From NCBI GenBank assembly GCA_036611895.1, contig GCA_036611895.1_4766.1: 64,000 nucleotides of DNA. One strand, written 5' to 3'. Made by a program: the position numbers and the translations under genes. Below, in pieces: positions 46,607 to 63,862 of this stretch. Within the stretch, counting starts at the first letter, position 1; every line of letters begins with the position of its first letter. The stretch comes from a phage. The notes beneath the pieces are model-generated. The model did no database searches and was not told where the DNA came from. It saw nothing but the letters and a program-made list of their open reading frames with translations.

Positions 46607-47449
46607 ATGATTATGTCTTGTTCTGCTGAGGTAGAAGCTAACCGACTCCTAGAAGAGTTAACTAAGGGTGATGACTTTACCCTTCCTGATATTGATATGT
46701 CCGGTCCTGAATGGGATATACCTGGTGGAGATGATTCCCCAATCTTTGGGGCCATTACTAAAGTAACAAATGAATCTCTTACTACTCGTGAAGTAGGTGG
46801 TAGTGGTACGTTTGATGCATTAATGGAATCCGCACACAATCACCTTAAAGCTGAGTTTAAGGCTAACCGTATTACAGGTGGTGAATATACCAAAGCATAT
46901 ATTGCTATGATGGAATCATGCATGAGTAATGCTGTTCAGTTCTTACTTGGTCGTGACCAGGCATACTGGGCTGCTGCATTGGCACAGATTCAGGCAGTTA
47001 CTGCTCGTGTTACATTGGCTACTTCTAAAGCTCAGTATGTACTGGCTAAGATACAAGCATTGTCTACTAAGGGTGAATACGCTCTTACTAAGATGAAGAT
47101 TGCTACTGAGTCTGAAACATACTGTGCTGCATTATTTAATGTACAAAAAATTCTTCCTGCACAGGAGCGTTTGATACAGGAACAATATGAAGTACAACGT
47201 GCACAGACTCAGGAAATGCGCTCTGATGCATTACCTATTCTTGGTTCTATTGGTAAACAGAAAGAGTTGTATTCTCAGCAGATTACTTCGTATCAACGAG
47301 ATGCAGAAGTTAAAGCAGCTAAGCTGTTTACTGATGCATGGATTACTCAGAAGACTATTGATGAAGGCTTGAATCCACCTAATGGCTTTACTAACGCAAG
47401 TATTGATACCATTCTAACCAAGCTGAAGTCTAACAACGGGCTGAACTAA
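46607..47449 (+). CDS. virion-associated protein (280 aa)
   Basis: ORF track; late-region position. Confidence 0.45.
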
Positions 47450-47450
47450 T

Positions 47451-50105
47451 ATGGGCTTATTCAGTGGGAAGACCAAAGTATACGTAGCATCCTCTGTCTA
47501 TAACATGGCAGGGGATATTCACAAACGTCCTAACTATATGAAGACTGTAGTCATTGGTAACATTATTTCCAATACAGGATTCACTATGGCAGACACTATC
47601 TCTGATAGTTATCTGAATGGACCCGGTATTCGTATGCGACTGTTCTCCAGCTGGAGTAAGAACCACTATGATTCAGAAGTTGGTATGGCTGGTTCTTCAT
47701 TAGGTGTACTGGCTAAGATTGACCCTACTGTAATAGAGGGTCAAATTACACCTCCTGCTGGGGAGTCTGTTTATGTTCAGGCAGCAGAGATTGGCTTTGC
47801 TGATTTTGAGCAATGGTGTGACCAGTACCTTTATGAGAATGCTCCAAGTCGAATCATGGAACGATTCGACGTAGACATTGATGAGGATACCAATGAAATT
47901 ACTATGACCTCCCTGGATGGAGGTTCTACTATTAAATTCACACCTACCAACTTTGAACCAGGTGCTTTGTATCTCTATGCTGATTACACGTCCTATAAGT
48001 CCCCTACTACTAATCCACCTGTAGTAGGACCGACTACTGTCTATGATGATGAGGATGACTTACCCTCTACTTTGTTATGGACTACCATCTCAAGTGATAC
48101 TACGGCCAATTCAACTAACCTTACCAAAACTATACATACTCATTCTGTTTACTCTGATGGCAGACCTGATGAAGACAGTACTGTCATTGAACCAAGCATA
48201 GATAATTGGAACTCTTACGTTAAGGTTTATCGTAGAGGATTCACTGAGAAACCTGATGATGTGACTGTAGTTGTATCTGACAGGGTAATGACCCATAGAA
48301 AGTTCGGTGAGATTCAGTCCAGTACTGCTGTAACTACCAATGTAGTAGATATTGGTGGGGGTGTTACTCGCACAGACACAATCACTACAACCACAGAGAC
48401 ACTGGTTCGTAAGTACTCATCTCAGACTACTCGTACTGACACAGAGATGACTGCTGTTGGTACACCTAAGATGCTTATCTATAAACAGAACTCTGGTAAT
48501 GTTGCACTGGATTCTCTGTTTGAGACTGAGGCTACTGATAACCGATTCTACCCGTTCATTCCAATCAGGAATGATAAACGATGGGTAGAAAATGACCCAA
48601 TCTACCCACACTGTAAGAAAGCTCTTTATAAAGCTACTGGTGGAAAAATTGATAAAGTAGTCACGGAGCTTAAGAAGAATGATGACATAGGTGATATTCA
48701 GTACATTTATGGCACATTTGGTGTATCTCTTAATACCCCAGAAGATGCTGCTAAGGAATACATCTACCGTTTCTTTCAGATGGCTACTGAAGCATTCCCA
48801 CCTGACCCAACCTACCCGACTTTGGAAGCAGTAATTGCAGGTTATCAGGCAGCTAATGATGCAGTTGATGCATATGTAGAATGGTGGAACAGGACTGAAG
48901 GGCATACTATTGGAACTCCTCCACCACTGCCAGAATACCCTGTAATACCTAAACGAGAGTTTAGAGTGCATAGTAATAAGCATTATAAATACGACATGAC
49001 CATTGGTTGGAACTATGTGTCTGAAACTACACATTCAGGGCAAGCATGGGCTGGGGCTAAGCAGGGACAACTACGAGCCAGATATGCAGGAGATATAACC
49101 CTTACTCGCAAGAACATAAGGACAGCTTCTAACTCCGGTTCTGCTAAGAAACTTGAGGTAACATATACATTCTATTCAATGCAGGAGTATGAGTTACTTT
49201 GGCAGGATGGTAATAACACTTACCGTAAACTCAGAGTATTGGGCCTAAACCACAATAACAGGGTATATAAGAATAAGTCAGTGCACATTGATGTTGCTGA
49301 AGCAATGGGTGATGCAGAAGAAAGTGGATTCATTATTCCACTGCACACTAACATTTACCGTTCAATGTCACTGGTTCGAAGTACTCAGCTATCTACTGCC
49401 TGTTCCTACTTAGTGATGAACTCATATAAGAAGGTTAAGCAGAAATGGTATCAGACCGGGGCATTTAAGATTGTTGTTGTAGTGGTTGCTGTGGTTATTT
49501 CTGTATTTACAGCCGGTGCTGGTGGTGCAGGCATACTTGGTGCATATGGTGCAGTTGGTGCTTCACTTGGTTTTGTTGGATTAGCTGCTGTGATAGTTGG
49601 TGCTGTAGCAAATGCTATTGCTGGAATGATTCTGGTATCCATTATCACTAAAGTATCCACATCACTGTTCGGTGATAAATTGGGCTTTATTATTGCAGCT
49701 ATTGCCTCAATGGTAGCTATGAATGTTGGTACTGCCCTGTCTACCGGTACATCTCTGTCCACTCTGGCAAGTGAAATGATGAATGCCCAAAACATCATGC
49801 AGCTTACCAGTTCAGTAGGTAATGGTATTAGCCAGTATATTAATGCATCTACGGCTGCTACTATTCAGAAAGCAGAGAAAGTAATGCAGCAGTACAATAC
49901 TGATATGATGGCAATCAATAAGCAGTATGAAGAAATGTTTGGTACTGCTGGACAGGGTGTAATTGACCCTATGCAATTCGTGTCAATGGAGTCACTGGAT
50001 TCATTCTTATCACGTACTCTTATGACTGGTTCAGATATAGCCGACATGTCTTTAGACATGATAGGTAACTACTCTGACATGACCCTTAATACTGACCTAG
50101 TTTAA
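47451..50105 (+). CDS. internal virion/ejection protein with C-terminal multi-helix hydrophobic domain
   Basis: 884 aa. C-terminal 250 aa dominated by Gly/Ala/Val-rich hydrophobic stretches (FKIVVVVVAVVISVFTAGAGGAGILGAYGAVGASLGFVGLAAVIVGAV). Confidence 0.5.
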   Translation: MGLFSGKTKVYVASSVYNMAGDIHKRPNYMKTVVIGNIISNTGFTMADTISDSYLNGPGIRMRLFSSWSKNHYDSEVGMAGSSLGVLAKIDPTVIEGQITPPAGESVYVQAAEIGFADFEQWCDQYLYENAPSRIMERFDVDIDEDTNEITMTSLDGGSTIKFTPTNFEPGALYLYADYTSYKSPTTNPPVVGPTTVYDDEDDLPSTLLWTTISSDTTANSTNLTKTIHTHSVYSDGRPDEDSTVIEPSIDNWNSYVKVYRRGFTEKPDDVTVVVSDRVMTHRKFGEIQSSTAVTTNVVDIGGGVTRTDTITTTTETLVRKYSSQTTRTDTEMTAVGTPKMLIYKQNSGNVALDSLFETEATDNRFYPFIPIRNDKRWVENDPIYPHCKKALYKATGGKIDKVVTELKKNDDIGDIQYIYGTFGVSLNTPEDAAKEYIYRFFQMATEAFPPDPTYPTLEAVIAGYQAANDAVDAYVEWWNRTEGHTIGTPPPLPEYPVIPKREFRVHSNKHYKYDMTIGWNYVSETTHSGQAWAGAKQGQLRARYAGDITLTRKNIRTASNSGSAKKLEVTYTFYSMQEYELLWQDGNNTYRKLRVLGLNHNNRVYKNKSVHIDVAEAMGDAEESGFIIPLHTNIYRSMSLVRSTQLSTACSYLVMNSYKKVKQKWYQTGAFKIVVVVVAVVISVFTAGAGGAGILGAYGAVGASLGFVGLAAVIVGAVANAIAGMILVSIITKVSTSLFGDKLGFIIAAIASMVAMNVGTALSTGTSLSTLASEMMNAQNIMQLTSSVGNGISQYINASTAATIQKAEKVMQQYNTDMMAINKQYEEMFGTAGQGVIDPMQFVSMESLDSFLSRTLMTGSDIADMSLDMIGNYSDMTLNTDLV

Positions 50106-50118
50106 CAGGAGAATCCCT

Positions 50119-50562
50119 ATGGATTTGTCATTCTTAACAGGCAACCAAACCCCACAGCCAGCTGCTATGTCTTGGATGTCTAATAACAATCAGAACTTTA
50201 ATACCCCGGCTATGAACTATAACCCTGGTGCTGCTATCGGTATGGGTACAAATTTGGGGGCAACTTCCCCTACTTCTTTCATGTCGGGTTCAGCTAATCA
50301 GTTGGGCCTGAATGTACCCACCTTCCAGTTAGGACTGGGTGCACTTGGTTCATTAGCTAATATCTATAGTGGTTTCCAGGCCAATAAGTTAGCCAAAGAC
50401 CAGTTGAACTTTACTAAGAGTGTTACTAACACTAACCTGAATAACCAGATTAAGTCTTATAACACTGCACTGGAAGACCGTGCTCGTAGCCGTGCTGTTG
50501 CAGAAAACCGTGACCAGTCTTCAGCTGATGCTTACATTGCAGCTAATAAATTAACCCGTTAA
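50119..50562 (+). CDS. virion protein, low-complexity (147 aa)
   Basis: ORF track; Asn/Gly/Ser-rich. Confidence 0.45.
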   Translation: MDLSFLTGNQTPQPAAMSWMSNNNQNFNTPAMNYNPGAAIGMGTNLGATSPTSFMSGSANQLGLNVPTFQLGLGALGSLANIYSGFQANKLAKDQLNFTKSVTNTNLNNQIKSYNTALEDRARSRAVAENRDQSSADAYIAANKLTR

Positions 50563-50574
50563 TAGGAAACCATC

Positions 50575-52521
50575 ATGGCTCAAATTACATGGCGTAATGT
50601 TGATGCACCTAACTTCTCTGGAGTTGGTGACAGCATTCGCACATTTGGTAGCATGATTGGTAACGCCACCTCCGGCTTAAGTGATGCACTGGGTAATTTC
50701 CAGAACGCTGCCAAGCAGGAGGCTGGCAATGCCGTCATGATGAATGCTATGCAGTATCAAGACCCTACTGAGTATCGTAATGCTTTGGCATCCGGTGCAT
50801 TGTTCCAGGGGGTTGACCCTTCACTCGTAAACCAACATACCCTGCAGAATCTGGATGAGCGAGCAGGTACTCTGTTGACCCAACAAGGTCAGCAGGGAAT
50901 TAATGACTACAATGTTTATCGTTTTGGTCGTTTACAGGATAATGACTCTGCATTAGATAATGCATCTCCAGCTATTCGTTTACTGTCTGAGGCTTATCAG
51001 TCTGGCGACCAGAATCGTATTAATGCAGCATTGAGTCAGACTCGTGATGCACTGTCTGCACTTCCTGCTGACCAACAACTGGATATGCTGAGCCGTCTTC
51101 AAGGTCAGGGTGGTCAGGCTATTAACCAAGCACAGAACCGCTTTGATTTGGGTGTGGCTCAACGCAATGATGCGGATTCACAAGCTGCATCCGGTATATT
51201 GACGGACATTTTCCGCAGTGCTTCTACACCTATGGATGCTCTTACACTGGCAGAGTCTGCTATGAAGAATGCTTCTCCTGGTGTACGTGCTGCAATCATG
51301 CGAGGTGTGAACCAGAGGTTCCCGGGTACTTATGCTGCATCCCCTTCTGGCTCTTCTCCAGGAACTGCTGGTACTCGTTCTGGTTCCCCTTACGATGCAA
51401 CCTATACCTTTGCAGCTACTGATAAGCCTATTACTGAGATGACCCTTGGTGAGGTTACTAACCATCAGCAAACTATGATTAATAACCCATCACAAGGTCA
51501 TTCTCCTGTAGGTGCATTCCAGATTAATAAAGCTACCCTGGAAGACTATGCTCCTAAGGTGCTTGGTTCAAATTGGCGTAATCAGCAAATGACTCCTGAA
51601 GTGCAGGACAAAATAGCTGAAGCAATCTTCAATGACCGTAAGAATGGTAACCTTTCTAAGACTTGGGCTGCATTGCCTGACCTTGGTGTGGGTGGTTATA
51701 AGGACATGCCTTGGAGTGAAGCACGTCAGTTAATTGCACAGGCAGAGGTAGGTGCATCTCTTGAGCAGTTACAGACCCAACAAGTAGTTTCAAACATGGC
51801 AGGCAATACAGTTGCTGCACGTCAGTCTGAAGATAATACTGGAACCATTACTGCTAACTATGCTCGTGCATTACGTGATAACTCTACCATTGGTGAAGTA
51901 GCAGACCGTCTTCTTAAGGATGCTTTTAAAGGTTCTGAGAAAGGATGGATGATAGCTCGACTGAATGATGTTATGCAGGAATCCGGACAGTCTCCTGCTG
52001 TAGCTGCTGAGATTCTTAAGCAGTCTACTACCAACGTACCGGAAGGTATGATTAGTCGAGCACTCGATGCACTTAACCCATTTATCTCCAATGAAGGTGG
52101 TGGTGGTATTCGCATTGATGATACCGTTGCCAGAGAACTGGCACGTTCAGTACGTCGTGGGGAAGGTATTGAAGCTACTGCTCGTGATAGTGTTCTTACT
52201 CAGGTGCAAGGTAATATTGCAAATGCCCAGAACCAGGTAACGCAAGCAGAAGCCTTACTTGCTGATACTCGCCGTCGTGTAGCTGCTGGACAAAGTGGGC
52301 TTGCTGCTACTATTCCTGCTCGTGAGGCTGAGTTAGTAAGAGCACGGGCTGCACTGGATGCTGCTGTCAATACTGTGGTAGCTAACCAAGGAAACCTGGT
52401 TCCACAGAACTTCCGTTCTAATGCTTCAGTAGAACGTGAGCGTAGTCGTGAAGATGAAGAACGAGCTAGACGTTATCGAAAATTAGCAGAGGGTTTACCT
52501 CCCTATATGCAACCTCGATAA
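50575..52521 (+). CDS. internal virion protein, possible lytic-transglycosylase-like segment
   Basis: 648 aa. NNPSQGHSPVGAFQINKATL loosely resembles the SLT-domain S..GA.GLMQ motif; weak. Confidence 0.45.
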   Translation: MAQITWRNVDAPNFSGVGDSIRTFGSMIGNATSGLSDALGNFQNAAKQEAGNAVMMNAMQYQDPTEYRNALASGALFQGVDPSLVNQHTLQNLDERAGTLLTQQGQQGINDYNVYRFGRLQDNDSALDNASPAIRLLSEAYQSGDQNRINAALSQTRDALSALPADQQLDMLSRLQGQGGQAINQAQNRFDLGVAQRNDADSQAASGILTDIFRSASTPMDALTLAESAMKNASPGVRAAIMRGVNQRFPGTYAASPSGSSPGTAGTRSGSPYDATYTFAATDKPITEMTLGEVTNHQQTMINNPSQGHSPVGAFQINKATLEDYAPKVLGSNWRNQQMTPEVQDKIAEAIFNDRKNGNLSKTWAALPDLGVGGYKDMPWSEARQLIAQAEVGASLEQLQTQQVVSNMAGNTVAARQSEDNTGTITANYARALRDNSTIGEVADRLLKDAFKGSEKGWMIARLNDVMQESGQSPAVAAEILKQSTTNVPEGMISRALDALNPFISNEGGGGIRIDDTVARELARSVRRGEGIEATARDSVLTQVQGNIANAQNQVTQAEALLADTRRRVAAGQSGLAATIPAREAELVRARAALDAAVNTVVANQGNLVPQNFRSNASVERERSREDEERARRYRKLAEGLPPYMQPR

Positions 52522-52538
52522 AATCTTACATACTAATA

Positions 52539-52562
52539 AAGCCCCATCCGGGGCTTTTCTCT
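52539..52562 (+). terminator. intrinsic terminator before vRNAP gene
   Basis: aagcccc-atcc-ggggctt hairpin followed by ttctctt. Confidence 0.55.
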
Positions 52563-52606
52563 TACATTCACTTACTGTACAGTGAATCTTCTTATACGAT
52601 ATAAGT

Positions 52607-55600
52607 TTGAACAGGAATCATGCTATGTCAACATTTGACCGTCTGGCAGGTTTCGCAGACAGCATCACTACTGCTAAGCAAGTCGATGTCTCTACTGCAA
52701 CCTCTCGGAAACAAGCTGAACAAGGGCAAAGCCCTTTCCAATTAACTCCTCAGAATGCCTACCAATTACAGGCAGGACGTGCCGGTGACTTAGGTGCTGG
52801 TGCATTTGAACCAGGTTCTATTCAGGCAGATTTTACTAATGCCTCCCCCCTTGAAATCGTAAACAAGTATGGCAATGAGCAAGGAATGGACATTCTCAAT
52901 GCTCGTGTCAATGCAGCTAATTCTGTTCGTCGTGATTTAACTAAGAGTCGTACTTATGGTGAAGCACTTGGTGATACCCTTTCTGGTGTTGGTCTTGGTG
53001 TTGCTAATACCCTTGGGGGCATTGCTGCTCTTGGCACAGGTTTGGTCAATGATAATGCCGGGGCAACCATTGCTTCCAGTCTTGACTGGTTGAATAAAGG
53101 TGTACACAACCTACAGTCTGATGCACTGAATGCTCGCCGTAATGTAGTACAGAACCAGAACGTAATATCTGCACAGGAAAATGAGAAACAGTATAAGCAG
53201 GATATTGCTGAAGGAGAAAGTGAACTCGTTGCTTCCTTGTCTCGCATTGGTCGTGATGCTTACGATTCTGTCGCTAACACTTTGTCTAATGGCATGGCTG
53301 CTACAGATGGTCTGGCTGAGGGTGTTGGTTCACTGTTTACTGGTGGTCCACTTATCCGTGGTGTATCTGCACTAGGTAAGGTAATGGTAGGTGGTGATAA
53401 AGCTGTTAAGGGCATTACCTTAGCTGCTGAATTAGGTTCACGTCCTGCACGAATTGCACAGTCTGCTGGTCGTGTTGCTGCACCTGCTATAGCAATTGGT
53501 GGTATGGAAGCTGGTGGTGCATACCAACAGACTGCTAATGAAATTATGGAAATGCCATTCAGTGAACTGGCTGCTAAATCTCCTGTATACCAACAGCATA
53601 TTAAAGACGGTTTATCTACTGAAGAAGCACGACGTCAGACTGCATCTGAAACAGGTATCACTGCTGCTGGTTTAACTGCTCCAGTTGCTGCTCTTACTGC
53701 TCCACTGGTATCCAAGTTTGAACTTAATCCACTTAAGGTAGGTTCACTGGCTGGTGCTGGTTCTAACATGCTGCGAGAGACTGTAGAAGAAGGTATTCAG
53801 TCTGGTACAAGTCAGTTTGCACAGAACAAGGCAATCCAAGGTAATGTTGATGCATCTCGTGACATCCTCAAAGGTGTAGGCGAACAAACTGGTCTTGGTG
53901 CATTGTATGGCTTTGGTTCTGCTGGAGTTGCTCAAGCTCCTGGTGCAACTGTTAAGGCTGCTGGTGCTGCCGTTGGTCCTGCTGTACGTACTACCCTGGC
54001 TGGTGCTTCTCTGGCTGGTAAGGCATTAGCAAAAGTAGCTTCTCCTATTACTAACATCCTGGTTCAACGTGGGGAAGAAGTTGCTAAGCGTAATGAACAA
54101 GCATCCCCTGTATCTGATGCTACGGTTAACGCTGCTGCACAGGAAGCTACTGCTCAGGCAGAACAAGCACAAGCAACTGTACAGGAAGCAGTAGATGCAA
54201 TGGATATTTCTCCAGAAGAGAAAGCTGCTGCTACTCAGTATGCTGCTGACTTAACTCAGGTAATGAAGTTTGATCCAGTAGAACTGGAACAAGCTAGTCC
54301 AGTAGTCCGTGAAGCTGTTTCTGGTTCCACTAACCGTGTTGAAGCTATTCAGAAGATGGCTGACCTGGTTAATACTGCTGAAGACCCTAACGTTCAAATG
54401 GAAGCTGCAATCCAGATGTATGACAACATTATGTCTATGGATAGCTTCATTAACCGTGATCCAGGTGCATTAGCTAATCTGGAACAGGGTTCTCCTGCTG
54501 CTAATATTGTTGATCAGTTCTCCGGTCTGATGGCTAATGTACAGAATACACCGAAGGTACTCCGTGCATTCCGTGCCATTCATTCCATGATTCAGGAACA
54601 GGCAGAAGCAGGTAAACTGAAAGCTACTGAAGAAGCTAACCAAGCCCAAGCAAACAACATTGCTATGGCTGCTGATATGTCTCCAGAAGTGCTGGACGCA
54701 GATTCAGTGAACATGGTTCTGAAACATGCAAGTGAAGGTAAGATTACATTGGGGAATCGTCAGCGTGCTGCCCTGCAATCTGCTGCTGCTCTATTGCAAG
54801 GAGCACGGGAATTTGACGCTAAAGCAGAAGAACTAGGCTTACGTCCTCAAGACATTGTTAGTAAACAGATTAAAACCGACGAATCTCGTTCTAATGAAGG
54901 TCAGTACTCTGCGTTGCAACATGCTAAACGCATTCGTTCTGCGTACAACTCTGGTAACTTCGATTTGGCTTCCGCTTATCTCGACGACTTTATGAAGTTC
55001 GCCCAGCACATGCAGAATAAGGTCGGAGCGTTGAATGAGCATCTGATTTCTGGGAATGCGGATAAGAATAAGTCTGTCCATTATCAGGCTCTTACTCCCT
55101 CGCGTGAATGGGTACGTAGTCGTACTGGCCTCGGTGTCAATCCGTATGATACCAAGTCTGTTAAGTTTGCCCAACAAGTAGGACTGGAAGCCAAGACCGT
55201 AGCTGATATTGCTAACGCACTTGCTACGGCTTACCCGGAGCTTAATGTTTCTCATGTGAAAGTTACCCCATTGGATTCACGTCTGGACAAGCCTGCTGCC
55301 CAGGTAGTTAAAGAGTTCCGTCAGGGCAATCTTGATGCTGCTCAATCCCAACAGACCAATGAACCAGTGAATCAGGTTGATGAAACTCCTGTTACAAAAC
55401 AGGAACCAGTTACCCCTACTGTACAGACTAAACCCTCTGTTAGTGAAGCTGTTAAAACAGAACCCACTATTAAAGAGTCTAAACCACAGGCTGTAAAAGA
55501 ACCTGAGAATCAGTCTGAATCTTCTATCCCAGCTGGGCCTGAAATGAAGACTGCTGAGTTCACCGGTAAACAGCAAGCCTCATATATGCAGTTAGGTCAG

Positions 55601-58600
55601 TACTTTGCTTACAACGGTAAAGACTTTATTGCTATTGGCAAAGATATAGAAGGCACTCGTGCTGTTCCTGTTACTGGTGGTAAGACTATTGTTATTCCAG
55701 GAGAAACTACTGTTACAGGTAAAAGTGACGTACTGACTTCCTTTAAGTATGGGGAAACAAATGTACCTTACGTTATGACTCCAGAAGGTCGAATCTTTAG
55801 TCTACGTAGTACTCGTGAGGTATGGGCTACCCCATCTCAGGCTCGTACAGATTTCCTTAACTATGTTCGGAATACATTCCCTCAACCGGAATCTGCTCCG
55901 GTTAATGTAGAGGAAACAAAGTCTGAATCCGAAAAGCCAAATGATACTACCCTTACTAATGAGGATACCATCGAGCAGTCTACTGAATCTGAAAGGGATG
56001 CTTATGTAAAAGAGAATACTATTTCTCAAGAAACTCTTAATAAGTATGGTGACCGTAGGGAGAGTCCATGGCTCTTTGCTGATGGTACTGTTGTTGGTTC
56101 CAATGGTGACCATATCAGTCTGTCCGATGTATTTGGTCATGATGGGTATCGTGACATGTCTCTGGATACTGGTGCTGTGCGTTCTACCTTCTACAAGGCC
56201 AAGTCTGGCCATCCTGAGGATGTGGACTTCGTGTCGCTGCAGCTGTTTGATAATCAGAAGCTGACTGCTGAACAATTCAATACCGTTCAATCTTTCGTTG
56301 AAGCCAATAATGCACATATTCTGGTTGGTGTAGATACATCTGGGCTTAATACCAATAACGTTGAGGAAGATGAAGTATCACTGGCTCAACTGAAAGCAGA
56401 CCATACCGTGGGCGGTGAACCTCTATCTCAAATGGAAACAGTGTTCCCTGTCTATAACAACGAAAAGACACCGAACCAGTTCCTTAAAGCATTTTCTCTA
56501 CCAGAAGAACCTAAGTCTCGTACCATTGGTTCTGAATCTCCTTTAACTGATGTTAAGAAAGCACTGTCTTCTGCTGCTCGTTTTGAAGCATTCACTCAAA
56601 AAGAAAATAACGCTCTCACAAGTGATGTGATTAAGCGTTATCAGGACTTGTTTGATTTTGGTGAAACTCTGAAGACTACTCTGTCTGACCGTCTGGCTAA
56701 GTTCCTTGCTAATAAGAATGTTGGTAAACGTTTTGCAGAGGGTACTGAGGCTAACCGTTGGGTAGGTGGCAAACTGCTTAATATCGTAGAGAAAGACGGT
56801 GACACCTTTAAGTTCAATGACCAGTTGTTGGAGACTGCTGTACTTGCTGGTCTGCAATGGCGACTGACTGCTACACAGAATGCTGCCATTAAAGACATGA
56901 AAGACGTAGCTGCTATTACTGGTGTAGAAGCATCTCTGCTACCAGAAGGCATTTTGGCTGACTTCGAAAATGCTCAGACATTGGTTGAAGCTACTAACTC
57001 ACTGGCTCAAAAGATTGAATCCTATTGGGGTTTAAATCGTAATCCTAATGCACCACTGGGTTATACCAAGGGTATCCCAATGGCAATGGCTACAGAGATT
57101 CTGTCTTCTCTCATTGAAATGGGTGAAGTTAAAGAGTCCATGCTGGATGTATCTGAGATTGACCCAGAATCTAACAAGACTGTTGGTCTGTATACCATTG
57201 AGAAGTTAGACGATAACGATGCCATTAATAAATTCCCTACTGCTATTGAAGAAGCTGTTCTCGTAGAACCAGTAGAGAAACTGTACCTGGGTGATGATAT
57301 TCCTTCCGTGGCTCAAACTCAGTTACGTAATCCGGCTGTTAAGAATACCCCAGAACAGAAAGCTGCTCTTAAAGCAGAACAGGCTACTGAGTTTCGTGTA
57401 CATATGCCGATGGTTAACTTCTATGAAGCAATGGGTCGTGACAACATTCTGGAATTGATGGGTGCTGGTGCTCTTAATCCTGAGCTACTGAATGTGAATA
57501 CTGCTAAATCTCTGGAAGGTAAAAACCTGTCCGTGTCCATGGCATATGATTCCTTGTTTGGTGTAATCAATCAGATTAAGGAACAGGAGAATGGGCTGGA
57601 TACACCTATTCACTATGGTTACAACATGACCCGTGTAGGTCGTATGCAGATGCTTGGTAAGAACAATCCACAGTCCAGTAAGCTGGTACGTGAAGCAATT
57701 CTACCAACCTTCTCTACCATCGACTTGAGTAATGAAAACAGCCAAACGTTCTCTGACTTCCAGTTAGGTCTGGCTCAGGCATTGGGCATCAAAGTTCATA
57801 AAATGTCTCGCGAAGTTATGTCAGATGAACTGACTAAAGCTCTGGAAGGTAAACTGAAACCTGCCGTCGATATGATGGTTGAGTTTGATAAGTCTGGGCA
57901 CTTACCTACTAATGCAGTGGATATTCTGAAGACTTCCTTGGGGAATGATAAATCATTCGTAGCTCTTATGGCTCTTATGGAATATGCCCGTTACCTGAAT
58001 AGTGATGACCGTGCTAACTTTAATACCCCACTGTACGTTGAAGCTGATGGTGTAACCAACGGACCAATCAACGCAATGGTACTGATGACGGGTGGTAAGT
58101 TCACTTCAGACTGGATTAAGAATACTGCTAAGGGTGGTTTGTTCTTCGGTAAAGCTGGTAAGACCATGAATGAGCATCATTCGCATGAGGACAGCGTTGA
58201 CCTGTATGAAGCATCCACTAATAGTCTGCAACAGGCACTGAATGAATTGCGTAATACTTATCGTAACAACGTTCCTGTTACGAACCAGATGAAGCATCTT
58301 CAGAAGTTAATGGACCTGTTCATTAAAGACTTCAATCTTAATGAAGATGGTACTCTGGACCTGAAACGTGGTATCGCTAAAAACCCACTGACTATTACCA
58401 TCTATGGTTCTGGTGCTCGTGGTATTGCAGGCAAGATGGTTAGTGCAATTACTGATACCATCTACGAACGCTTCAGCGACGTTCTGCAAGCCCGTGCTGC
58501 TGACCCTAGCATTTCTCCAGCTATGGCTATGTTTGGTAAAGAGGCTGCATCTGAAGCTGATGCTCAGGCTATGCTGGATACCTTCCTTACTTCTATGGAA

Positions 58601-61600
58601 GCATTAACTGGTAATGTTCCAGTTATGCGTAAAGGTGAACTGTCTATTCAACAAGTAGAGGGTGCTCTGTCTGGTAAGTTAGACCCCCAGAAGTTTACCG
58701 TATCTGGCAATGCTCTGAAGAACCTGCAAGAGAATATGCTTCACCTGTTCGTTGAACCAATGCGTACTGGTATCCGAAATACTGTTGGTGAAGGGTTGAT
58801 GCACTCTACTGAGAACTTACAGAAGGCTACCCAGATTCAATCACTGGTATTGCAGGATATGTTCCAACAAGCTGTACAGGCTAAGCTGGCAGAAAAAGAA
58901 AAAGACCCAACATGGAAGAAAGGTGATTTCTTAACACAGAAAGAACTGAATGAAATCCAGAATAGCTTAGCTCCGCTGGCTCCAATGATTGAGACTGGTT
59001 CTCAAACATTCTACATTGCTGGTAGTGAGAATACTGATGTTGCTAACCAAGTACTGGCTACCAACTTAGATGACCGTATGCGTGTGCCAATGAGCATCTA
59101 TGCTCCTTCACAGGCAGGTGTTGCAGGTATTCCATTTATGACCATCGGTACTGGTGATGGCATGATGATGCAGACTCTTTCTACTATGAAAGGTGCTCCG
59201 AAGAATACCCTGAAAATCTTTGATGGTATGAACATTGGCATTAATGACATCTCTTATGCAAGCCGTAAAGCTAATGAGGCTGTATATACTTCCTGGCAGG
59301 GTAATCCTATTAAGAATGTATATGACTCCTTTGCTAAGTTCATGAAGAACGTAGACTTCAGCAAACTGTCTGATGAAACCAAACAGGCTATCGCTAAGTC
59401 TGCTCTGGAGTATGACCAACGTGAAGGTGCTACTGATGACCTGTTACGCGTTGGTGCTGAACAGATTGAACGTAATCTGCGTAACATTGCTTTGGGTGTA
59501 GATATTCGTCACAAGGTAATGGACCAGGTACAGGTCACTGTTGACCAGATGGCTGCTGTAGGTGCTCCTTATGTGAACAACGGTAAAATCTCTCTGGAAG
59601 GTTTAACTGTAGACCAGCAAGTAGCTAAGCTGAATGAACTGTTTGATGCTGAATTAAATAAGCGTCGTGATGCAGTACGTGCTGCTAAAGCAGAGTCAAC
59701 GAAGGTAGAACCAGTGAAAGAAGTGCCAGTGGTTGAAGTGCCTGCTATGGAGAAGGTTGGTCGTGTACTGAAGTCTGGTGTACGCCTGCTGTCTAATACT
59801 GCCATTACTAAGCTGGCTAAAGAGATGTCTCCTGAACAACAAGCAGTATTGAAAGAAATACAGAAATCCCTTGCTGCTAAAGACTACAAGGTTGTTTACG
59901 GTACACCTTCTCAACTGGATGCCTACGCTATTGAGAAGAATATTACTCGCCCAGCACCAGAAGATATTGAAGCTGCTGAAGCAGGCAATGCATACGGTTG
60001 GACTAACTTTGAAGATAAGACCATCTACTTAGTTACCCCTTCCTTAGAGACTCTGGTTCATGAATTGGTACATGCTTCTACTTTTGAATCTGTACTGGCT
60101 CACTATGAGGGTACTCCTAACGAAGCAGTCCAGAATATTGAAGACCTGATGAACCAGTTCCGTGCTCTGGATGTTAAGGACGAATCTCCGGCAGTACGTG
60201 AAGCATATGCTGATGCACTCAATACCATTAATGGTCACTTGTCTAACGGCTTTATTGAACCAGCAATGGCTAAAGCTGCTGCACTGAATGAGTACATGGC
60301 CTGGGGTTTAACCAACCGTGAATTGATTGGCAAGCAGAAGAAAACCACTGCACTTAAAACTATGGTTCAGGCTGTATATGAAGCAATCAAACGTCTGGTA
60401 TTCGGACGTAAGAAAGCTCCGGCTAATGCAGATGATATGTTCTCTGGCTTACTGTTTAACTCTGCTGTAGTAATGCGTGGACAAGCTCCTACTGCTGCTG
60501 TAGCCAAAGACACTACCTTGTTCCATAACAAAGCATACGGTGACAATACTCGTCTGGAAGAGCTAGGGAAAACCTTCGATAAGCTGATTACTGACTACAT
60601 TGGTTCAGAACCAGTACAACAAGTAATTCGTAAAGGTAAGTTCTCTGATGCAGTAGTGAATGCAACTAAAGTAACTCGCGATGTTCAGGCTCATGGCTTC
60701 ACCATGAATATGCAGGAACAGCGTCTCTTTACTAACATTGTTGCTGCACTAGCTACCGAGGCTACTATTAACCCAGCTGCCATGGCTCGTGCACAGGAAT
60801 ACTACACGCATGTTACTAAGAACCTGACTGTTGAAGCGTTCATGGCTGACTCTGATAGTACTAACCCTGCTGACCGTTACTATGCACAGCAGAAGTTCGA
60901 TACCATTATGGGTGCTAACAACATTGAGTTTGATGCACAGGGTCGTTCTTCCTTACTGCCTACCTTTGTTGGTCTGGCAATGGTAAGTGAAGAGGTACGT
61001 AAGGTACTGGCTGATATTCCTGTTATGAAAGCAGATAAGAAATCAGGCAATACTGTTGATGCAATGCTGACTAACATCGGTACTGCTGCAATGGCTAGTC
61101 TGAATGCTCGTGTAGCAGGTGATACTAAAGCTACTAACGTACAGGAAGGTATGGATGCACTGGCTCAGACAATCATGCAGACCAGCCTTAATGCAGAGTC
61201 TTTCTATGATTCCGTTGCTACTCCTACCGGTAATGCTATTGACCGTGCTAACCAGTATCTGGTGGATTCTATTGATGCACTGTCTACTCGTACTTTGGAA
61301 GGTGCTCGTGAAGTTGCAGCTAATACCAAGAACCCACTGGTTAAAGGTGCTGCTCATGCTGCACAACTGATAGCTGCTATTGCTACAGAGAAGAATGGTT
61401 CAATCGTAGCTGAAGGTGTTATGGCTGCAATGAACCAGGGTAAAGTATGGCAACCTTTTCATGACCTGGTTAATGACATAATCGGTCGTACTAAGAGCAA
61501 TGCTTCCGTATATGATTTGATTAAAGCAGTACGTGCACAGGTACAAGCAGACCGTCAACAGTTCCGTGAACATTTGCCTACCACTATCGCATCTAAGTTC

Positions 61601-63862
61601 AGCCGTAAGCTGACTAATGATGAGTGGAAAGTAATGCATATCGGTATGGGTAAAACTGACTTAGCTGTTCTGCGTGACACTATGTCTCTGGCTGAAATTC
61701 GTGACCTGCTAACTGACCAAAAAATTGTTGACCGTGAGGTTAATAAACTGGAAGCAGATTTGCAAAAACAAGCAGGACGTAACTGGCCTCTAATTAGCCG
61801 TAAATCTAAGCAACTGGCTCAGTACATGATTAATGGTACAGTCGGGAATAACCTGCTGCGTAATGCTACTGCAATTTCTCGTTTACTGGGTGAACGTAAG
61901 ACTACGCGTTCTGTTGTAGATGTAGCTCAGCTGGATAAGCTGATTACTCTGTATGCACTGGAAGCAATGAATAAGACTGACCGTGAGATGTTATCTTCGC
62001 TGGCTCAGACAGAAATTGAAGGCATGGATTTTGCTACTTCTTACCTAGTTGGTCAGCGTAAGGATGAAATGGCTAAAGCTAAGTCTGATTCTCGTGCAAC
62101 CCTGAACCAGTACAAAGGGTATATTCCTGGTGAAACTAAACAGGGTGTTAACCTGATTGTTGCTGAAGATAATCAGTTTGCTGATTTGATTGAGAAGTCT
62201 TATGTACGACTGGGTACATATCAGGGTAGCTCTGCTAATCGAGGTCCAGCACGTAGTTACTACTTTGCACCAGTGCAGGCACAGGCTCCATTCTCACAGG
62301 GTATCCTACAGAACGTTCGCAATACTGCTGGTGGTGTAGACCTTGGCACAGGCTTTACGATGGGAACCATGGTAGCTGGTCGTATTACTGACAAGCCTTC
62401 CGTAGACCGTATCACTAAAGCACTGGCTCGTGGTGAACGTGGTAATGAGCCACTACTGCCTGTATATGATGCCAATGGTAATGTGGTTGCTTACGAGCAA
62501 TCCATTGACCCTAACATGCTGAAGCATATTGAAGGTGAGAATCATCTTGCTCGTGCAATTGGTGTATGGCGTGGTCGTCAGGTAGAAGAAGCTAAGGCCC
62601 AGCGTTTCAACGATATGCTGATTGAGAACCTGCATAGCATGTATGAAAACGACATTAAGATGTCTGCATCTAATAAGTCCCAGTACGTTAACCTTCTTGG
62701 TTCTAAACTGGACCCAGTGACTGCTGATGCTCTTAAGCTGATGAACAGTGAAACACGTCAGAAAGCAGAAAGTCTGTTTGGACCAGGTGAACTGTGGGTA
62801 CGTCGTGACATGCTGAATGATGCTTTAGGCTATCGTGCAGCTTCTGTTGGTGATGCCTGGTCTGGTAATTCTCGTTGGTCCCCAGAAACACTGGATACCT
62901 TCAAGAAAGCTATGCTGGGTGTATTCGGCAACCGTGCCTATAAGTACGTAATGGGTGGTGAGAATCTGGTTCAGAACTTAGTTAAAGAAGCTAAGACTCT
63001 GATTGTAGTTAAGTCAGTAGTTGTACCTGCTGTTAACTTCCTGGCTAACCTTTACCAGATGGTTGCTCGTGGTGTGCCTGTTAAGAACATTGCTAAGAGT
63101 ATTCCACAGAAAACTGCTGAGATTAATCAGTATCTGAAATCTCGTCTGCGTCAGGTAGATGCAGAAGCAGAGTTACGTGCAGCTACTAACCCGAACCAGA
63201 TTCGTAAGTTGAAAGCTGAGATTCAGTCCATCACGGATAGTCATAAGCGTTTGAGTATCTGGCCTCTGTTGGAAGCTGGTGAGTTCTCTTCAATTGCAGA
63301 TGCTGGTATTGGGCGAGATGACATTCTGATTACTGAAGGTAAACTTCACGAATACATGGAAAAGCTGGCTGATAAGTTGCCTAAGTCTGTACGTAACGCA
63401 GGTCGTTATGCACTAATCACTAAGGATACTGCTCTCTTCCAGGGTATCCAGAAGACGGTTGAGTACTCTGACTTTATCGCTAAAGCAATCATCTATGATG
63501 AACTGACTAAGCGTAAAGGTAAGACTCGTGAAGAAGCACTTGGACGCGTAACGGAAGAGTTCATTAACTATGACCGTCTGCCAGGTCGCTTCCGTGGGTA
63601 TATGGAAAGTGTTGGCTTAATGTGGTTCTACAACTTTAAAATTCGTTCTGCAAAAGTTGCAGTATCCATGATTCGTAATAACCCAGTACATGCTGCTATG
63701 GCTATGCTGGCTCCAACTCCAACTATGTTTGGTAATGTTGGTCTGCCTATTCAGGACAATATCTTTAGCATTGCTGCACAAGGCAATCTCGGTTACTCCT
63801 TCGGTTTCGGTCAAGGCTTACGTGCCCATAACCTGAACCCTTGGCTCAACCTTACTAACTAA
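52607..63862 (+). CDS. virion-encapsidated giant RNA polymerase (N4 vRNAP-like), 3751 aa
   Basis: Single ORF. VEADGVTNG (Asp near aa 1813), IAKNPLTITIYGSG (Lys 1925, Tyr 1933) and IFDGMNIG (Asp near aa 2206) reproduce the D-K-Y-D spacing (111, 8, 282) that I recall for N4 mini-vRNAP D559/K670/Y678/D951. Likely true start is second in-frame ATG at about 52625 (AGGAA RBS). Confidence 0.9.
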   Translation: MNRNHAMSTFDRLAGFADSITTAKQVDVSTATSRKQAEQGQSPFQLTPQNAYQLQAGRAGDLGAGAFEPGSIQADFTNASPLEIVNKYGNEQGMDILNARVNAANSVRRDLTKSRTYGEALGDTLSGVGLGVANTLGGIAALGTGLVNDNAGATIASSLDWLNKGVHNLQSDALNARRNVVQNQNVISAQENEKQYKQDIAEGESELVASLSRIGRDAYDSVANTLSNGMAATDGLAEGVGSLFTGGPLIRGVSALGKVMVGGDKAVKGITLAAELGSRPARIAQSAGRVAAPAIAIGGMEAGGAYQQTANEIMEMPFSELAAKSPVYQQHIKDGLSTEEARRQTASETGITAAGLTAPVAALTAPLVSKFELNPLKVGSLAGAGSNMLRETVEEGIQSGTSQFAQNKAIQGNVDASRDILKGVGEQTGLGALYGFGSAGVAQAPGATVKAAGAAVGPAVRTTLAGASLAGKALAKVASPITNILVQRGEEVAKRNEQASPVSDATVNAAAQEATAQAEQAQATVQEAVDAMDISPEEKAAATQYAADLTQVMKFDPVELEQASPVVREAVSGSTNRVEAIQKMADLVNTAEDPNVQMEAAIQMYDNIMSMDSFINRDPGALANLEQGSPAANIVDQFSGLMANVQNTPKVLRAFRAIHSMIQEQAEAGKLKATEEANQAQANNIAMAADMSPEVLDADSVNMVLKHASEGKITLGNRQRAALQSAAALLQGAREFDAKAEELGLRPQDIVSKQIKTDESRSNEGQYSALQHAKRIRSAYNSGNFDLASAYLDDFMKFAQHMQNKVGALNEHLISGNADKNKSVHYQALTPSREWVRSRTGLGVNPYDTKSVKFAQQVGLEAKTVADIANALATAYPELNVSHVKVTPLDSRLDKPAAQVVKEFRQGNLDAAQSQQTNEPVNQVDETPVTKQEPVTPTVQTKPSVSEAVKTEPTIKESKPQAVKEPENQSESSIPAGPEMKTAEFTGKQQASYMQLGQYFAYNGKDFIAIGKDIEGTRAVPVTGGKTIVIPGETTVTGKSDVLTSFKYGETNVPYVMTPEGRIFSLRSTREVWATPSQARTDFLNYVRNTFPQPESAPVNVEETKSESEKPNDTTLTNEDTIEQSTESERDAYVKENTISQETLNKYGDRRESPWLFADGTVVGSNGDHISLSDVFGHDGYRDMSLDTGAVRSTFYKAKSGHPEDVDFVSLQLFDNQKLTAEQFNTVQSFVEANNAHILVGVDTSGLNTNNVEEDEVSLAQLKADHTVGGEPLSQMETVFPVYNNEKTPNQFLKAFSLPEEPKSRTIGSESPLTDVKKALSSAARFEAFTQKENNALTSDVIKRYQDLFDFGETLKTTLSDRLAKFLANKNVGKRFAEGTEANRWVGGKLLNIVEKDGDTFKFNDQLLETAVLAGLQWRLTATQNAAIKDMKDVAAITGVEASLLPEGILADFENAQTLVEATNSLAQKIESYWGLNRNPNAPLGYTKGIPMAMATEILSSLIEMGEVKESMLDVSEIDPESNKTVGLYTIEKLDDNDAINKFPTAIEEAVLVEPVEKLYLGDDIPSVAQTQLRNPAVKNTPEQKAALKAEQATEFRVHMPMVNFYEAMGRDNILELMGAGALNPELLNVNTAKSLEGKNLSVSMAYDSLFGVINQIKEQENGLDTPIHYGYNMTRVGRMQMLGKNNPQSSKLVREAILPTFSTIDLSNENSQTFSDFQLGLAQALGIKVHKMSREVMSDELTKALEGKLKPAVDMMVEFDKSGHLPTNAVDILKTSLGNDKSFVALMALMEYARYLNSDDRANFNTPLYVEADGVTNGPINAMVLMTGGKFTSDWIKNTAKGGLFFGKAGKTMNEHHSHEDSVDLYEASTNSLQQALNELRNTYRNNVPVTNQMKHLQKLMDLFIKDFNLNEDGTLDLKRGIAKNPLTITIYGSGARGIAGKMVSAITDTIYERFSDVLQARAADPSISPAMAMFGKEAASEADAQAMLDTFLTSMEALTGNVPVMRKGELSIQQVEGALSGKLDPQKFTVSGNALKNLQENMLHLFVEPMRTGIRNTVGEGLMHSTENLQKATQIQSLVLQDMFQQAVQAKLAEKEKDPTWKKGDFLTQKELNEIQNSLAPLAPMIETGSQTFYIAGSENTDVANQVLATNLDDRMRVPMSIYAPSQAGVAGIPFMTIGTGDGMMMQTLSTMKGAPKNTLKIFDGMNIGINDISYASRKANEAVYTSWQGNPIKNVYDSFAKFMKNVDFSKLSDETKQAIAKSALEYDQREGATDDLLRVGAEQIERNLRNIALGVDIRHKVMDQVQVTVDQMAAVGAPYVNNGKISLEGLTVDQQVAKLNELFDAELNKRRDAVRAAKAESTKVEPVKEVPVVEVPAMEKVGRVLKSGVRLLSNTAITKLAKEMSPEQQAVLKEIQKSLAAKDYKVVYGTPSQLDAYAIEKNITRPAPEDIEAAEAGNAYGWTNFEDKTIYLVTPSLETLVHELVHASTFESVLAHYEGTPNEAVQNIEDLMNQFRALDVKDESPAVREAYADALNTINGHLSNGFIEPAMAKAAALNEYMAWGLTNRELIGKQKKTTALKTMVQAVYEAIKRLVFGRKKAPANADDMFSGLLFNSAVVMRGQAPTAAVAKDTTLFHNKAYGDNTRLEELGKTFDKLITDYIGSEPVQQVIRKGKFSDAVVNATKVTRDVQAHGFTMNMQEQRLFTNIVAALATEATINPAAMARAQEYYTHVTKNLTVEAFMADSDSTNPADRYYAQQKFDTIMGANNIEFDAQGRSSLLPTFVGLAMVSEEVRKVLADIPVMKADKKSGNTVDAMLTNIGTAAMASLNARVAGDTKATNVQEGMDALAQTIMQTSLNAESFYDSVATPTGNAIDRANQYLVDSIDALSTRTLEGAREVAANTKNPLVKGAAHAAQLIAAIATEKNGSIVAEGVMAAMNQGKVWQPFHDLVNDIIGRTKSNASVYDLIKAVRAQVQADRQQFREHLPTTIASKFSRKLTNDEWKVMHIGMGKTDLAVLRDTMSLAEIRDLLTDQKIVDREVNKLEADLQKQAGRNWPLISRKSKQLAQYMINGTVGNNLLRNATAISRLLGERKTTRSVVDVAQLDKLITLYALEAMNKTDREMLSSLAQTEIEGMDFATSYLVGQRKDEMAKAKSDSRATLNQYKGYIPGETKQGVNLIVAEDNQFADLIEKSYVRLGTYQGSSANRGPARSYYFAPVQAQAPFSQGILQNVRNTAGGVDLGTGFTMGTMVAGRITDKPSVDRITKALARGERGNEPLLPVYDANGNVVAYEQSIDPNMLKHIEGENHLARAIGVWRGRQVEEAKAQRFNDMLIENLHSMYENDIKMSASNKSQYVNLLGSKLDPVTADALKLMNSETRQKAESLFGPGELWVRRDMLNDALGYRAASVGDAWSGNSRWSPETLDTFKKAMLGVFGNRAYKYVMGGENLVQNLVKEAKTLIVVKSVVVPAVNFLANLYQMVARGVPVKNIAKSIPQKTAEINQYLKSRLRQVDAEAELRAATNPNQIRKLKAEIQSITDSHKRLSIWPLLEAGEFSSIADAGIGRDDILITEGKLHEYMEKLADKLPKSVRNAGRYALITKDTALFQGIQKTVEYSDFIAKAIIYDELTKRKGKTREEALGRVTEEFINYDRLPGRFRGYMESVGLMWFYNFKIRSAKVAVSMIRNNPVHAAMAMLAPTPTMFGNVGLPIQDNIFSIAAQGNLGYSFGFGQGLRAHNLNPWLNLTN

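Follow-up and report, generated by a model that had tools for sequence, protein, structure and literature searches.

How does a podovirus of the N4 kind carry a virion RNA polymerase (vRNAP) of 3751 amino acids (aa) into its host, and does any of the proteins encoded next to the polymerase open the cell wall on the way? These questions are raised by a 64,000-nucleotide stretch of phage DNA (contig GCA_036611895.1_4766.1 of assembly GCA_036611895.1; the whole stretch is called the window below), in which open reading frames (ORFs) of 884 aa (47451-50105, +) and 648 aa (50575-52521, +) are followed by the 3751-aa vRNAP ORF (52607-63862). A sequence-only reading of the window, whose coordinates and lengths for these three ORFs are exact, had proposed that the 884-aa and 648-aa proteins together provide an envelope-spanning channel and a cell-wall-opening activity. 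We found that three genes in the interval belong to the conserved tail-gating and ejection cassette of Schitoviridae (gp54, gp53, gp52, gp51, gp50), and that the 648-aa protein contains a domain related to lambda lysozyme from which the catalytic glutamate is missing. Overall, the interval is best read as a plug, pore and tunnel cassette whose tunnel protein has a degenerate, murein-binding lysozyme domain, a reading that we regard as reasonably probable.

By megablast, the 6-kb stretch aligned over its full length and with 89-93% identity to Escherichia phages vB_EcoP-ZQ2, St11Ph5, ECBP1 and EC1-UPM, the nucleotide identity to ZQ2 and St11Ph5 being about 93%. Judged by its sequence, the window is from a Gamaleyavirus, a G7C-like/N4-like podovirus of the Schitoviridae. 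A 280-aa ORF (46607-47449) lies immediately 5' of the 884-aa gene, and a 147-aa ORF (50119-50562, +), overlooked by the earlier reading, lies between the 884-aa and 648-aa genes. All five cassette genes are on the same strand, with intergenic gaps of 1, 13, 12 and 85 nucleotides (nt). Their order, gp54-gp53-gp52-gp51-vRNAP, matches that of the N4 GenBank record (gp54, gp53, the 16.5 kDa protein gp52, the 66 kDa protein gp51, and vRNAP). Because the proteins match PDB entries of N4 gp51-gp54, are 46-63% identical to them and are encoded in the same order, we assigned the genes to the N4 cassette as follows (identities are pairwise, with N4).

46607..47449, +: tail tube protein, orthologue of N4 gp54, 280 aa (PDB 9d80_C, E 1.3e-140; N4 Gp54, 9lc0_K, E 2.7e-119, entries 9lc0/9yf4; 63% identity; phrog_2050, virion structural protein)
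47451..50105, +: tail plug protein, orthologue of N4 gp53 and DEV gp74, 884 aa (PDB 9yft_FA 'Gp53', E=0, residues 1-883; DEV 'N4 gp53-like protein', 9ze4_M, E 9e-19; 55% identity)
50119..50562, +: ejection protein, orthologue of N4 gp52 ('16.5 kDa protein') and analogue of T7 gp14 and DEV gp73, 147 aa (PDB 9yf4_OA, E 7.6e-46; DEV 8vxq_A 'N4 gp52-like', E 4e-4; 59% identity; phrog_2646)
50575..52521, +: ejection protein, orthologue of N4 gp51 ('66 kDa protein') and analogue of T7 gp15 and IVP-C, 648 aa (PDB 11mn_A, E 3.6e-115 by phmmer, residues 1-358; 46% identity; phrog_6126, E 9e-303)
52607..63862, +: virion RNA polymerase, orthologue of N4 gp50 and third ejection protein (ORF and synteny with N4; likely true start ATG 52625)

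The three proteins encoded between the tail tube and vRNAP genes are very probably orthologues of the plug, outer-membrane pore and tunnel proteins of N4. The 648-aa protein aligns with N4 gp51 by blastp over 624 aa (46% identity, E 3e-177); its identification as an ejection protein adjoining the vRNAP gene agrees with the earlier reading and is already established for the family (PMC13434306). Minus-strand ORFs within the two long genes (e.g. 48417-49034) were rejected as shadows of long, homology-supported plus-strand genes.

Much of what these proteins may do is known from N4 and DEV. Bellis et al. 2026 (PMC13434306), who compared N4 virions that were full with others that had been emptied, found that gp53 is a single-copy tail plug with its globular core outside the 12-mer tail tube, and that the tube is corked by a 'hydrophobic knot' built from gp53 residues 29-56 and 670-716. 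The C-terminal ~160 residues of gp53, located in the tail lumen next to gp52, were not resolved, and the plug remains on empty particles, held by one protomer of the sheath protein gp65. Two proteins are gone after genome release: gp52, present in the tail lumen as 12 N-terminal fragments, and gp51, which surrounds the portal as a helical hairpin. Both require detergent and form channels in planar bilayers; gp52 was assigned to the outer-membrane complex, and gp51, which must interact with gp50 and gp52, to the periplasmic tunnel. Recombinant gp51(1-359), or deltaC-gp51, assembles into a decameric T7-gp15-like channel, of which cryo-electron microscopy (cryo-EM) resolves residues 52-255. According to the same study, a peptidoglycan hydrolase is needed, none was identified in the ejection proteins, which show no such activity, and the enzyme must be supplied 'in trans'. 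The abstract of that paper reverses its body, naming gp51 as the outer-membrane complex and gp52 as the tunnel, opposite to the results, legends and discussion; we followed the body text. In DEV, the outer-membrane pore is formed by gp73 and the tunnel by gp72, whose C-terminal part is proposed to bind vRNAP, gp71 is the vRNAP (PMC11445570), and gp74 was seen by cryo-EM as a plug capping the tail tube (PMC12892993). Hardies et al. 2016 equated N4 gp51 with T7 IVP-C and N4 gp52 with the IVP-B position, and pointed out that internal virion proteins variably carry tail-lysozyme domains.

The central part of the 648-aa protein had been described in the earlier reading as a loose SLT-like block around the motif SPVGAFQI. 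We located there the following elements of the gp51-like gene.

50728..51339, +: residues 52-255, homologous to the decameric 'leg-fold' part of the N4 tunnel (gapless homology to N4 gp51)
51358..51759, +: residues 262-395, lambda-lysozyme-like domain (GH104/phrog_90-related) without the catalytic Glu
51367..51369, +: codon of Ala265, equivalent of the catalytic Glu19 of lambda lysozyme (chained alignments)
51502..51525, +: SPVGAFQI, residues 310-317, corresponding to STGAGRYQ of lambda R and to the G-L-M-Q motif of SLT

Searched by phmmer with residues 255-420, a set of 1.84 billion cluster representatives yielded 499 clusters at 50% identity (E<=1e-3), nearly all of them proteins of 550-800 aa that match at about residues 250-430. 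The number of clusters and the constant position of the match define a discrete and widespread domain of gp51-like proteins. When the domain was compared with 50,697 phage records by tblastn, 140 records were found, and in all 140 the gene is called 'structural' or 'hypothetical'. For the analysis of conserved positions we used an alignment of 60 diverse members (A3) and a larger set of 133 representatives. Five residues are invariant in A3 (G313, Q316, T321, Q344 and E391). The segment G313-A-F-Q316-I-N-K-A-T321 holds the substrate-binding motif G-x-x-Q-x4-T of SLT and Rpf proteins, and the motifs of the lysozyme cleft are kept (S-x-x-G-x-[FY]-Q-x4-T; F/M-T-P-E-x-Q-D; W-x-x-L-P...G-x-Y).

Comparisons with known lysozymes point to the lambda type. 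Scanned singly against PHROGs, 46 of the 60 members match phrog_90 'endolysin' (best E 1.7e-12), although the window sequence itself does not reach this profile at E<=0.1. Lambda R belongs to phrog_90 (E 3.9e-62) and covers the same region of the profile as the gp51-domain matches. In profile-profile alignment, hhalign placed A3 against lambda R alone with a probability of 71.7%, and against a small lambda R family alignment with 91.8% (E 7e-7, 103 columns); the search for lambda R homologues had returned only proteins at least 85% identical to it, which added little depth to that profile. Single family members were reached only marginally by phmmer with lambda R as the query. The link is closed by the baseplate hub/tail lysozyme domain of phage Atu_ph07, which matches both phrog_90 (1e-22) and the gp51-family profile phrog_6126 (1e-8), and which aligns by hhalign with A3 (98.6%, E 7.5e-16, 117 columns) as well as with the lambda R family (97%, E 9e-11). 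The lysozyme-like similarity of the 648-aa protein, for which the earlier reading had proposed a profile check, is well beyond chance at the profile level. A derivation of the domain from a lysozyme is highly probable, and its homology to the lambda-type (GH104-like) tail lysozymes, closer to lambda R than to SLT/GH23, is well supported by these alignments. The proposed SLT-like block thus stands as a part of a lysozyme-superfamily domain; its attribution to SLT itself does not, the domain being nearer to lambda R/GH104, and the window protein stays below the curated threshold of the SLT profile (GH23, PF01464).

Searches of PDB entries contributed less. The domain profile found N4 gp51 alone among all PDB sequences. 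AlphaFold2, supplied with the 60-sequence alignment, gave a confident model of residues 262-400, with a pLDDT of 93.3 and a pTM of 0.87, for which a Foldseek search of the PDB returned nothing significant; taken by itself, the evidence from structure would be weak. For the lysozyme of lambda R and its close homologues (GH104), Pfam has no domain on record, families being listed only on longer fused gene calls, which explains why Pfam annotation never flags the gp51 domain; PHROGs covers it with phrog_90. A direct Pfam scan of the four proteins yielded no meaningful match.

The domain differs from lambda R (GH104; PDB 1am7; phrog_90) and from the Atu_ph07-type hub lysozymes in the absence of the N-terminal helix and Glu19 and in a shortened beta-lobe, which lies between the YD strand and the GxxQ motif. 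It also lies midway along a helical channel protein of 648 aa, whereas lambda R is a free endolysin and the Atu_ph07-type lysozyme a hub domain. In the chained alignments, AWSE19GTD of lambda corresponds to GKTEGTD of Atu_ph07 and to GTA265GTR of the window, and the spacing of the G-T-x-x-G-x-x-Y-[DN] motif after the Glu19/Ala265 position is identical in all three. Among the 133 representatives, column 265 is occupied by Ala (52), Pro (15), Gly (13), Val (9) and other residues, including two Asp and no Glu. In every architecture checked, a low-complexity linker rich in Gly, Ala, Pro and Ser stands in place of the helix on which lambda R presents its Glu. Neither the Glu19 of lambda-type lysozymes nor the Glu of the SLT E-S motif was found in the window domain. 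We know of no GH23, GH24 or GH104 enzyme that works without its N-terminal Glu. With Ala265, no Glu in 133 relatives and the helix gone, the cell-wall-opening activity attributed to the 648-aa protein in the earlier reading is doubtful.

Two other acidic residues were considered for the missing glutamate and rejected. Glu293 lies in an M-T-L-G-E helix, and the same motif stands beside the canonical T-E-G-T Glu in Atu_ph07; moreover, E19 aligns to Ala265, and position 293 is E or D in 114 of 133 representatives (86%) and Q, A or G in the other 19 (14%). The 'ESG' at residue 469, which resembles the SLT E-S motif, is not conserved in relatives.

The same substitution is found in N4. N4 gp51 (PDB 11mn) is a full-length orthologue (644 aa, compared with 648 in the window), encoded likewise between the gp52 and vRNAP genes, and has the same lysozyme-like domain with His at the position equivalent to Ala265, although it is only 46% identical to the window protein. 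The published work on N4 gp51 does not describe this domain. Its 1-359 construct cuts through the domain, and the disorder beyond residue 255 is explained by a construct that ends inside it.

Within Gamaleyavirus the gp51-like gene is mosaic (~51177-52521), nucleotide similarity to the G7C-, U1G- and PD38-type genomes ending at about codon 200. Its lysozyme-like domain is 95-98% identical to those of St11Ph5, ZQ2, EC1-UPM and HK2 and ~55% identical to that of G7C, which is about as distant as N4. On this comparison, two divergent allelic types of the C-terminal two-thirds of the tunnel protein circulate in the genus.

More distant relatives were examined in Pseudomonas schitovirus ZC03 (NC_048638, 20493-26994), where gp19, gp18 and gp17 are syntenic with, and 39, 30 and 54% identical to, the gp54-, gp53- and gp52-like proteins of the window. 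There the vRNAP gene is adjoined by ZC03_016 (831 aa), a protein detected in virions by mass spectrometry, whose residues 336-443 form a bona fide SLT domain that passes the Pfam threshold (E 2.5e-18). As a homologue of the 648-aa protein ZC03_016 was rejected, having no detectable sequence similarity to it; the place in the cassette is conserved, and the gene that fills it is not. A mid-protein module of the lysozyme superfamily at the tunnel position nevertheless recurs in Schitoviridae, in an active-looking form in ZC03 and in a degenerate one in the N4/G7C lineage. T7 gp16 and phiKMV gp36 are precedents for lysozyme domains carried by internal virion proteins. These two proteins (with an N-terminal SLT and a C-terminal lysozyme, respectively) and ZC03_016 (with its SLT in mid-protein) share with the window protein the presence of a lysozyme-superfamily domain in an ejected podovirus protein; they differ from it in their canonical catalytic motifs, the window domain being of the GH104 type and without Glu.

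The 884-aa protein was assigned a different role from that in the earlier reading, which had described its last 250 aa as Gly/Ala/Val-rich, membrane-like helices and made it part of the channel. The two elements that bear on this question are as follows.

47535..47618, +: residues 29-56 of the gp53-like protein, N-terminal 'hydrophobic knot' element by homology (gapless alignment to N4 gp53)
49446..49745, +: residues 666-765, Gly/Ala/Val-rich hydrophobic block including the second knot element (Kyte-Doolittle, composition, conservation with N4 gp53)

Of the C-terminal 250 aa, only residues 666-765 fit the description. Kyte-Doolittle windows of 19 residues with a mean of at least 1.6 are confined to this block, which consists of Gly, Ala and Val by 48%, reaches a 19-residue mean of 2.53 and contains three charged residues (K673, K734 and D742); the last ~110 aa of the protein are polar and Met-rich. 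The equivalent of segment 670-716 of the N4 knot falls within this block, which shows strong conservation with N4 gp53. Both N4 knot segments (29-56 and 670-716) align to the 884-aa protein gaplessly and with high identity. Like N4 gp53 (PDB 9yft; 55% identity over 883 aa) and DEV gp74 (PDB 9ze4), the protein is encoded directly after the tail-tube gene and conserves the knot segments.

That the 884-aa protein is ejected and inserts into the membrane, with its hydrophobic C-terminal helices forming part of a trans-envelope channel, is very improbable. A 100-residue hydrophobic block does resemble three to four transmembrane helices, and the last ~160 residues of N4 gp53, adjoining gp52 in the tail lumen, were not resolved (PMC13434306). 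However, N4 gp53 is present in one copy, mainly outside the tube and still on empty particles, its hydrophobic segment being resolved as the knot that corks the tube (PMC13434306), and the DEV homologue gp74 is likewise a tube cap (PMC12892993). One copy of a gp53-like protein cannot make a DNA-sized pore. As the orthologue of an external single-copy plug that is kept on emptied particles, the 884-aa protein is not supported as a channel component.

The earlier channel proposal thus keeps the 648-aa protein, a tunnel by orthology, and loses the 884-aa protein, the outer-membrane partner being the overlooked 147-aa orthologue of gp52. The N-terminal 60 residues of this protein (50119-50300) are of low complexity and rich in N, Q, G, S, M and P, in line with the N-terminal part of N4 gp52, which Hardies et al. 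described as the sole non-helical segment among the internal virion proteins. Its C-terminal ~90 residues are highly conserved, with 54% identity even to gp17 of ZC03. With N4 gp52 (PDB 9yf4; 59% identity), DEV gp73 (PDB 8vxq) and T7 gp14 it shares an N-terminal half that is N/Q/G-rich and disordered and a C-terminal helix that is amphipathic and conserved; the 147-aa protein differs from the description of these proteins in that it shows no classical transmembrane segment by hydropathy. Kyte-Doolittle analysis revealed no such segment in either the 147-aa or the 648-aa protein (the maximal 19-residue mean of the former is 1.14), which fits an amphipathic, oligomerisation-dependent insertion into the membrane.

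By transferring roles from the N4 and DEV experiments to this phage, the following sequence of events can be proposed. One copy of the gp53-like protein would cap the 12-mer tail tube from outside, with its N-terminal segment (~29-56) and the block from ~666 forming a hydrophobic knot in the mouth of the tube and its polar ~110-aa end in the lumen. Receptor binding would displace the plug. The 147-aa gp52-like protein, presumably stored in the tail lumen, would then insert into the outer membrane, to be followed by the gp51-like protein of 648 aa, presumably kept around the portal, which would build a tunnel of about ten subunits across the periplasm for vRNAP and DNA. Within this tunnel the pseudo-lysozyme domain may dock in the murein layer and set the tunnel in register with it, while murein cleavage, if needed, would come from elsewhere. 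The position of the domain would suit such a role, since it lies between the leg fold (52-255), which would be proximal to the outer membrane, and the C-terminal part, which is proposed to reach the inner membrane.

On the sequence evidence, it is somewhat probable that the domain is non-catalytic and binds murein. The putative binding of peptidoglycan is proposed because the cleft motifs are retained, and these are its one basis. It is unlikely, in comparison, that the domain is a purely structural or oligomerisation module (a tunnel collar, or a dock for vRNAP or the portal) that makes no contact with peptidoglycan and keeps its lysozyme ancestry as a relic. Such a module would be in line with the storage of gp51 around the portal before ejection and its necessary contacts with gp50 and gp52 (PMC13434306), with the proposed binding of vRNAP by the C-terminal part of the DEV tunnel protein (PMC11445570), and with Q344 and E391, which are invariant in this family only and are not lysozyme active-site residues. 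The best-conserved positions, however, are the lysozyme cleft motifs (SxxGxYQ, WxxLP, GxY) and not a new surface, and the real SLT domain in the positional analogue of ZC03 points to a murein-directed role.

An active muralytic enzyme that uses a non-canonical acid (Glu391, perhaps helped by Glu/Asp293) and cuts murein locally during tunnel assembly is rather unlikely. The domain is homologous to active lysozymes and keeps their cleft motifs; Glu391, a residue peculiar to the gp51 family, is shared by all 133 relatives, as are G313, Q316, T321 and Q344; and the equivalent protein of ZC03 has a canonical SLT domain. The precedents of T7 gp16 and phiKMV gp36 also speak for an enzyme, as does the statement of the N4 authors that a peptidoglycan hydrolase is required and that none was identified in the ejection proteins (PMC13434306). 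Against it, the equivalent of Glu19 is Ala in the window, His in N4 and never Glu, the whole presenting helix is absent, position 293 is non-acidic in 19 of 133 representatives, the Atu_ph07 lysozyme has MTLGE as well as the canonical Glu, and the beta-lobe of the window phage is shortened; none of the GH23, GH24 and GH104 enzymes known to us works without the N-terminal Glu. The broader proposal that gp51-type domains work without the canonical Glu, either through Glu391 as a relocated acid or through a Glu-helix supplied in trans by another ejected protein, is a doubtful one. If true, the cutting of murein would start only once the ejectosome assembles in the periplasm, and the question of the 2026 N4 study on the source of the peptidoglycan hydrolase would be answered.

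Several observations weigh against the preferred reading of a plug, pore and tunnel cassette with a degenerate, murein-binding domain, in addition to the narrow basis for peptidoglycan binding. Pfam gives no match for the 648-aa protein even at E<=1, and in the relatives only sub-threshold matches in 16 of 60 members, six to SLT (best E 0.013) and ten to PF06737 Transglycosylase-like (best E 0.004). The domain is the best-conserved segment of the protein among 111 full-length relatives (52-59% identity to the window, compared with 12-25% elsewhere), in a conservation profile that is biased by the retrieval of these relatives with the domain itself as the query. Glu391 and Glu/Asp293 (86% acidic) might serve as non-canonical catalytic residues. 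For the cassette as a whole, the virion location and stoichiometry of the proteins are carried over from N4 (46-63% identity) and DEV, the window providing the genes alone. Finally, the sheath protein gp65 that holds gp53 is a feature of N4, and G7C-like phages have adsorption organelles unlike those of N4, so the partner of the plug may differ in them.

Other features of the window concern the expression of vRNAP and the layout of the genome. The 85-nt gap between the stop codon of the gp51-like gene and the vRNAP gene contains one regulatory candidate.

52538..52565, +: terminator-like hairpin with a U-rich tail, between the gp51-like and vRNAP genes (RNA fold, sequence)

The hairpin is GC-rich (AAAGCCCC-AUCC-GGGGCUUU) and is followed by the U-rich tail. 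Its folding energy is -13.1 kcal/mol (z -4.5), and none of 200 shuffled sequences folds as well; a consensus terminator scan did not list it. The hairpin could attenuate read-through and help to set a lower copy number of vRNAP relative to gp51. The vRNAP ORF starts mechanically at TTG 52607, and an in-frame ATG at 52625 (MSTFDRLAGFAD...) is preceded by AGGAA at 52613-52617. The ATG is the more plausible start, which would give a protein of 3745 aa and not 3751 aa. Over the whole window, the GC skew changes its sign at ~27-29 kb and the GC content has its minimum, 0.37, at 24-26 kb; both are in keeping with the change-over between early/middle and late gene blocks, which are transcribed divergently, as is typical of N4-like genomes.

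The Schitoviridae cassette has been at textbook level since 2024-2026, and its recognition in the window chiefly permits a correct annotation. What is new, as a modest addition to this known cassette, is that the periplasmic-tunnel protein of the N4 type carries a conserved domain derived from a lambda-type lysozyme and devoid of the catalytic Glu. If a murein-binding pseudo-lysozyme does sit in the middle of the tunnel, it would offer a concrete and testable account of how the tunnel finds its register in the cell wall.

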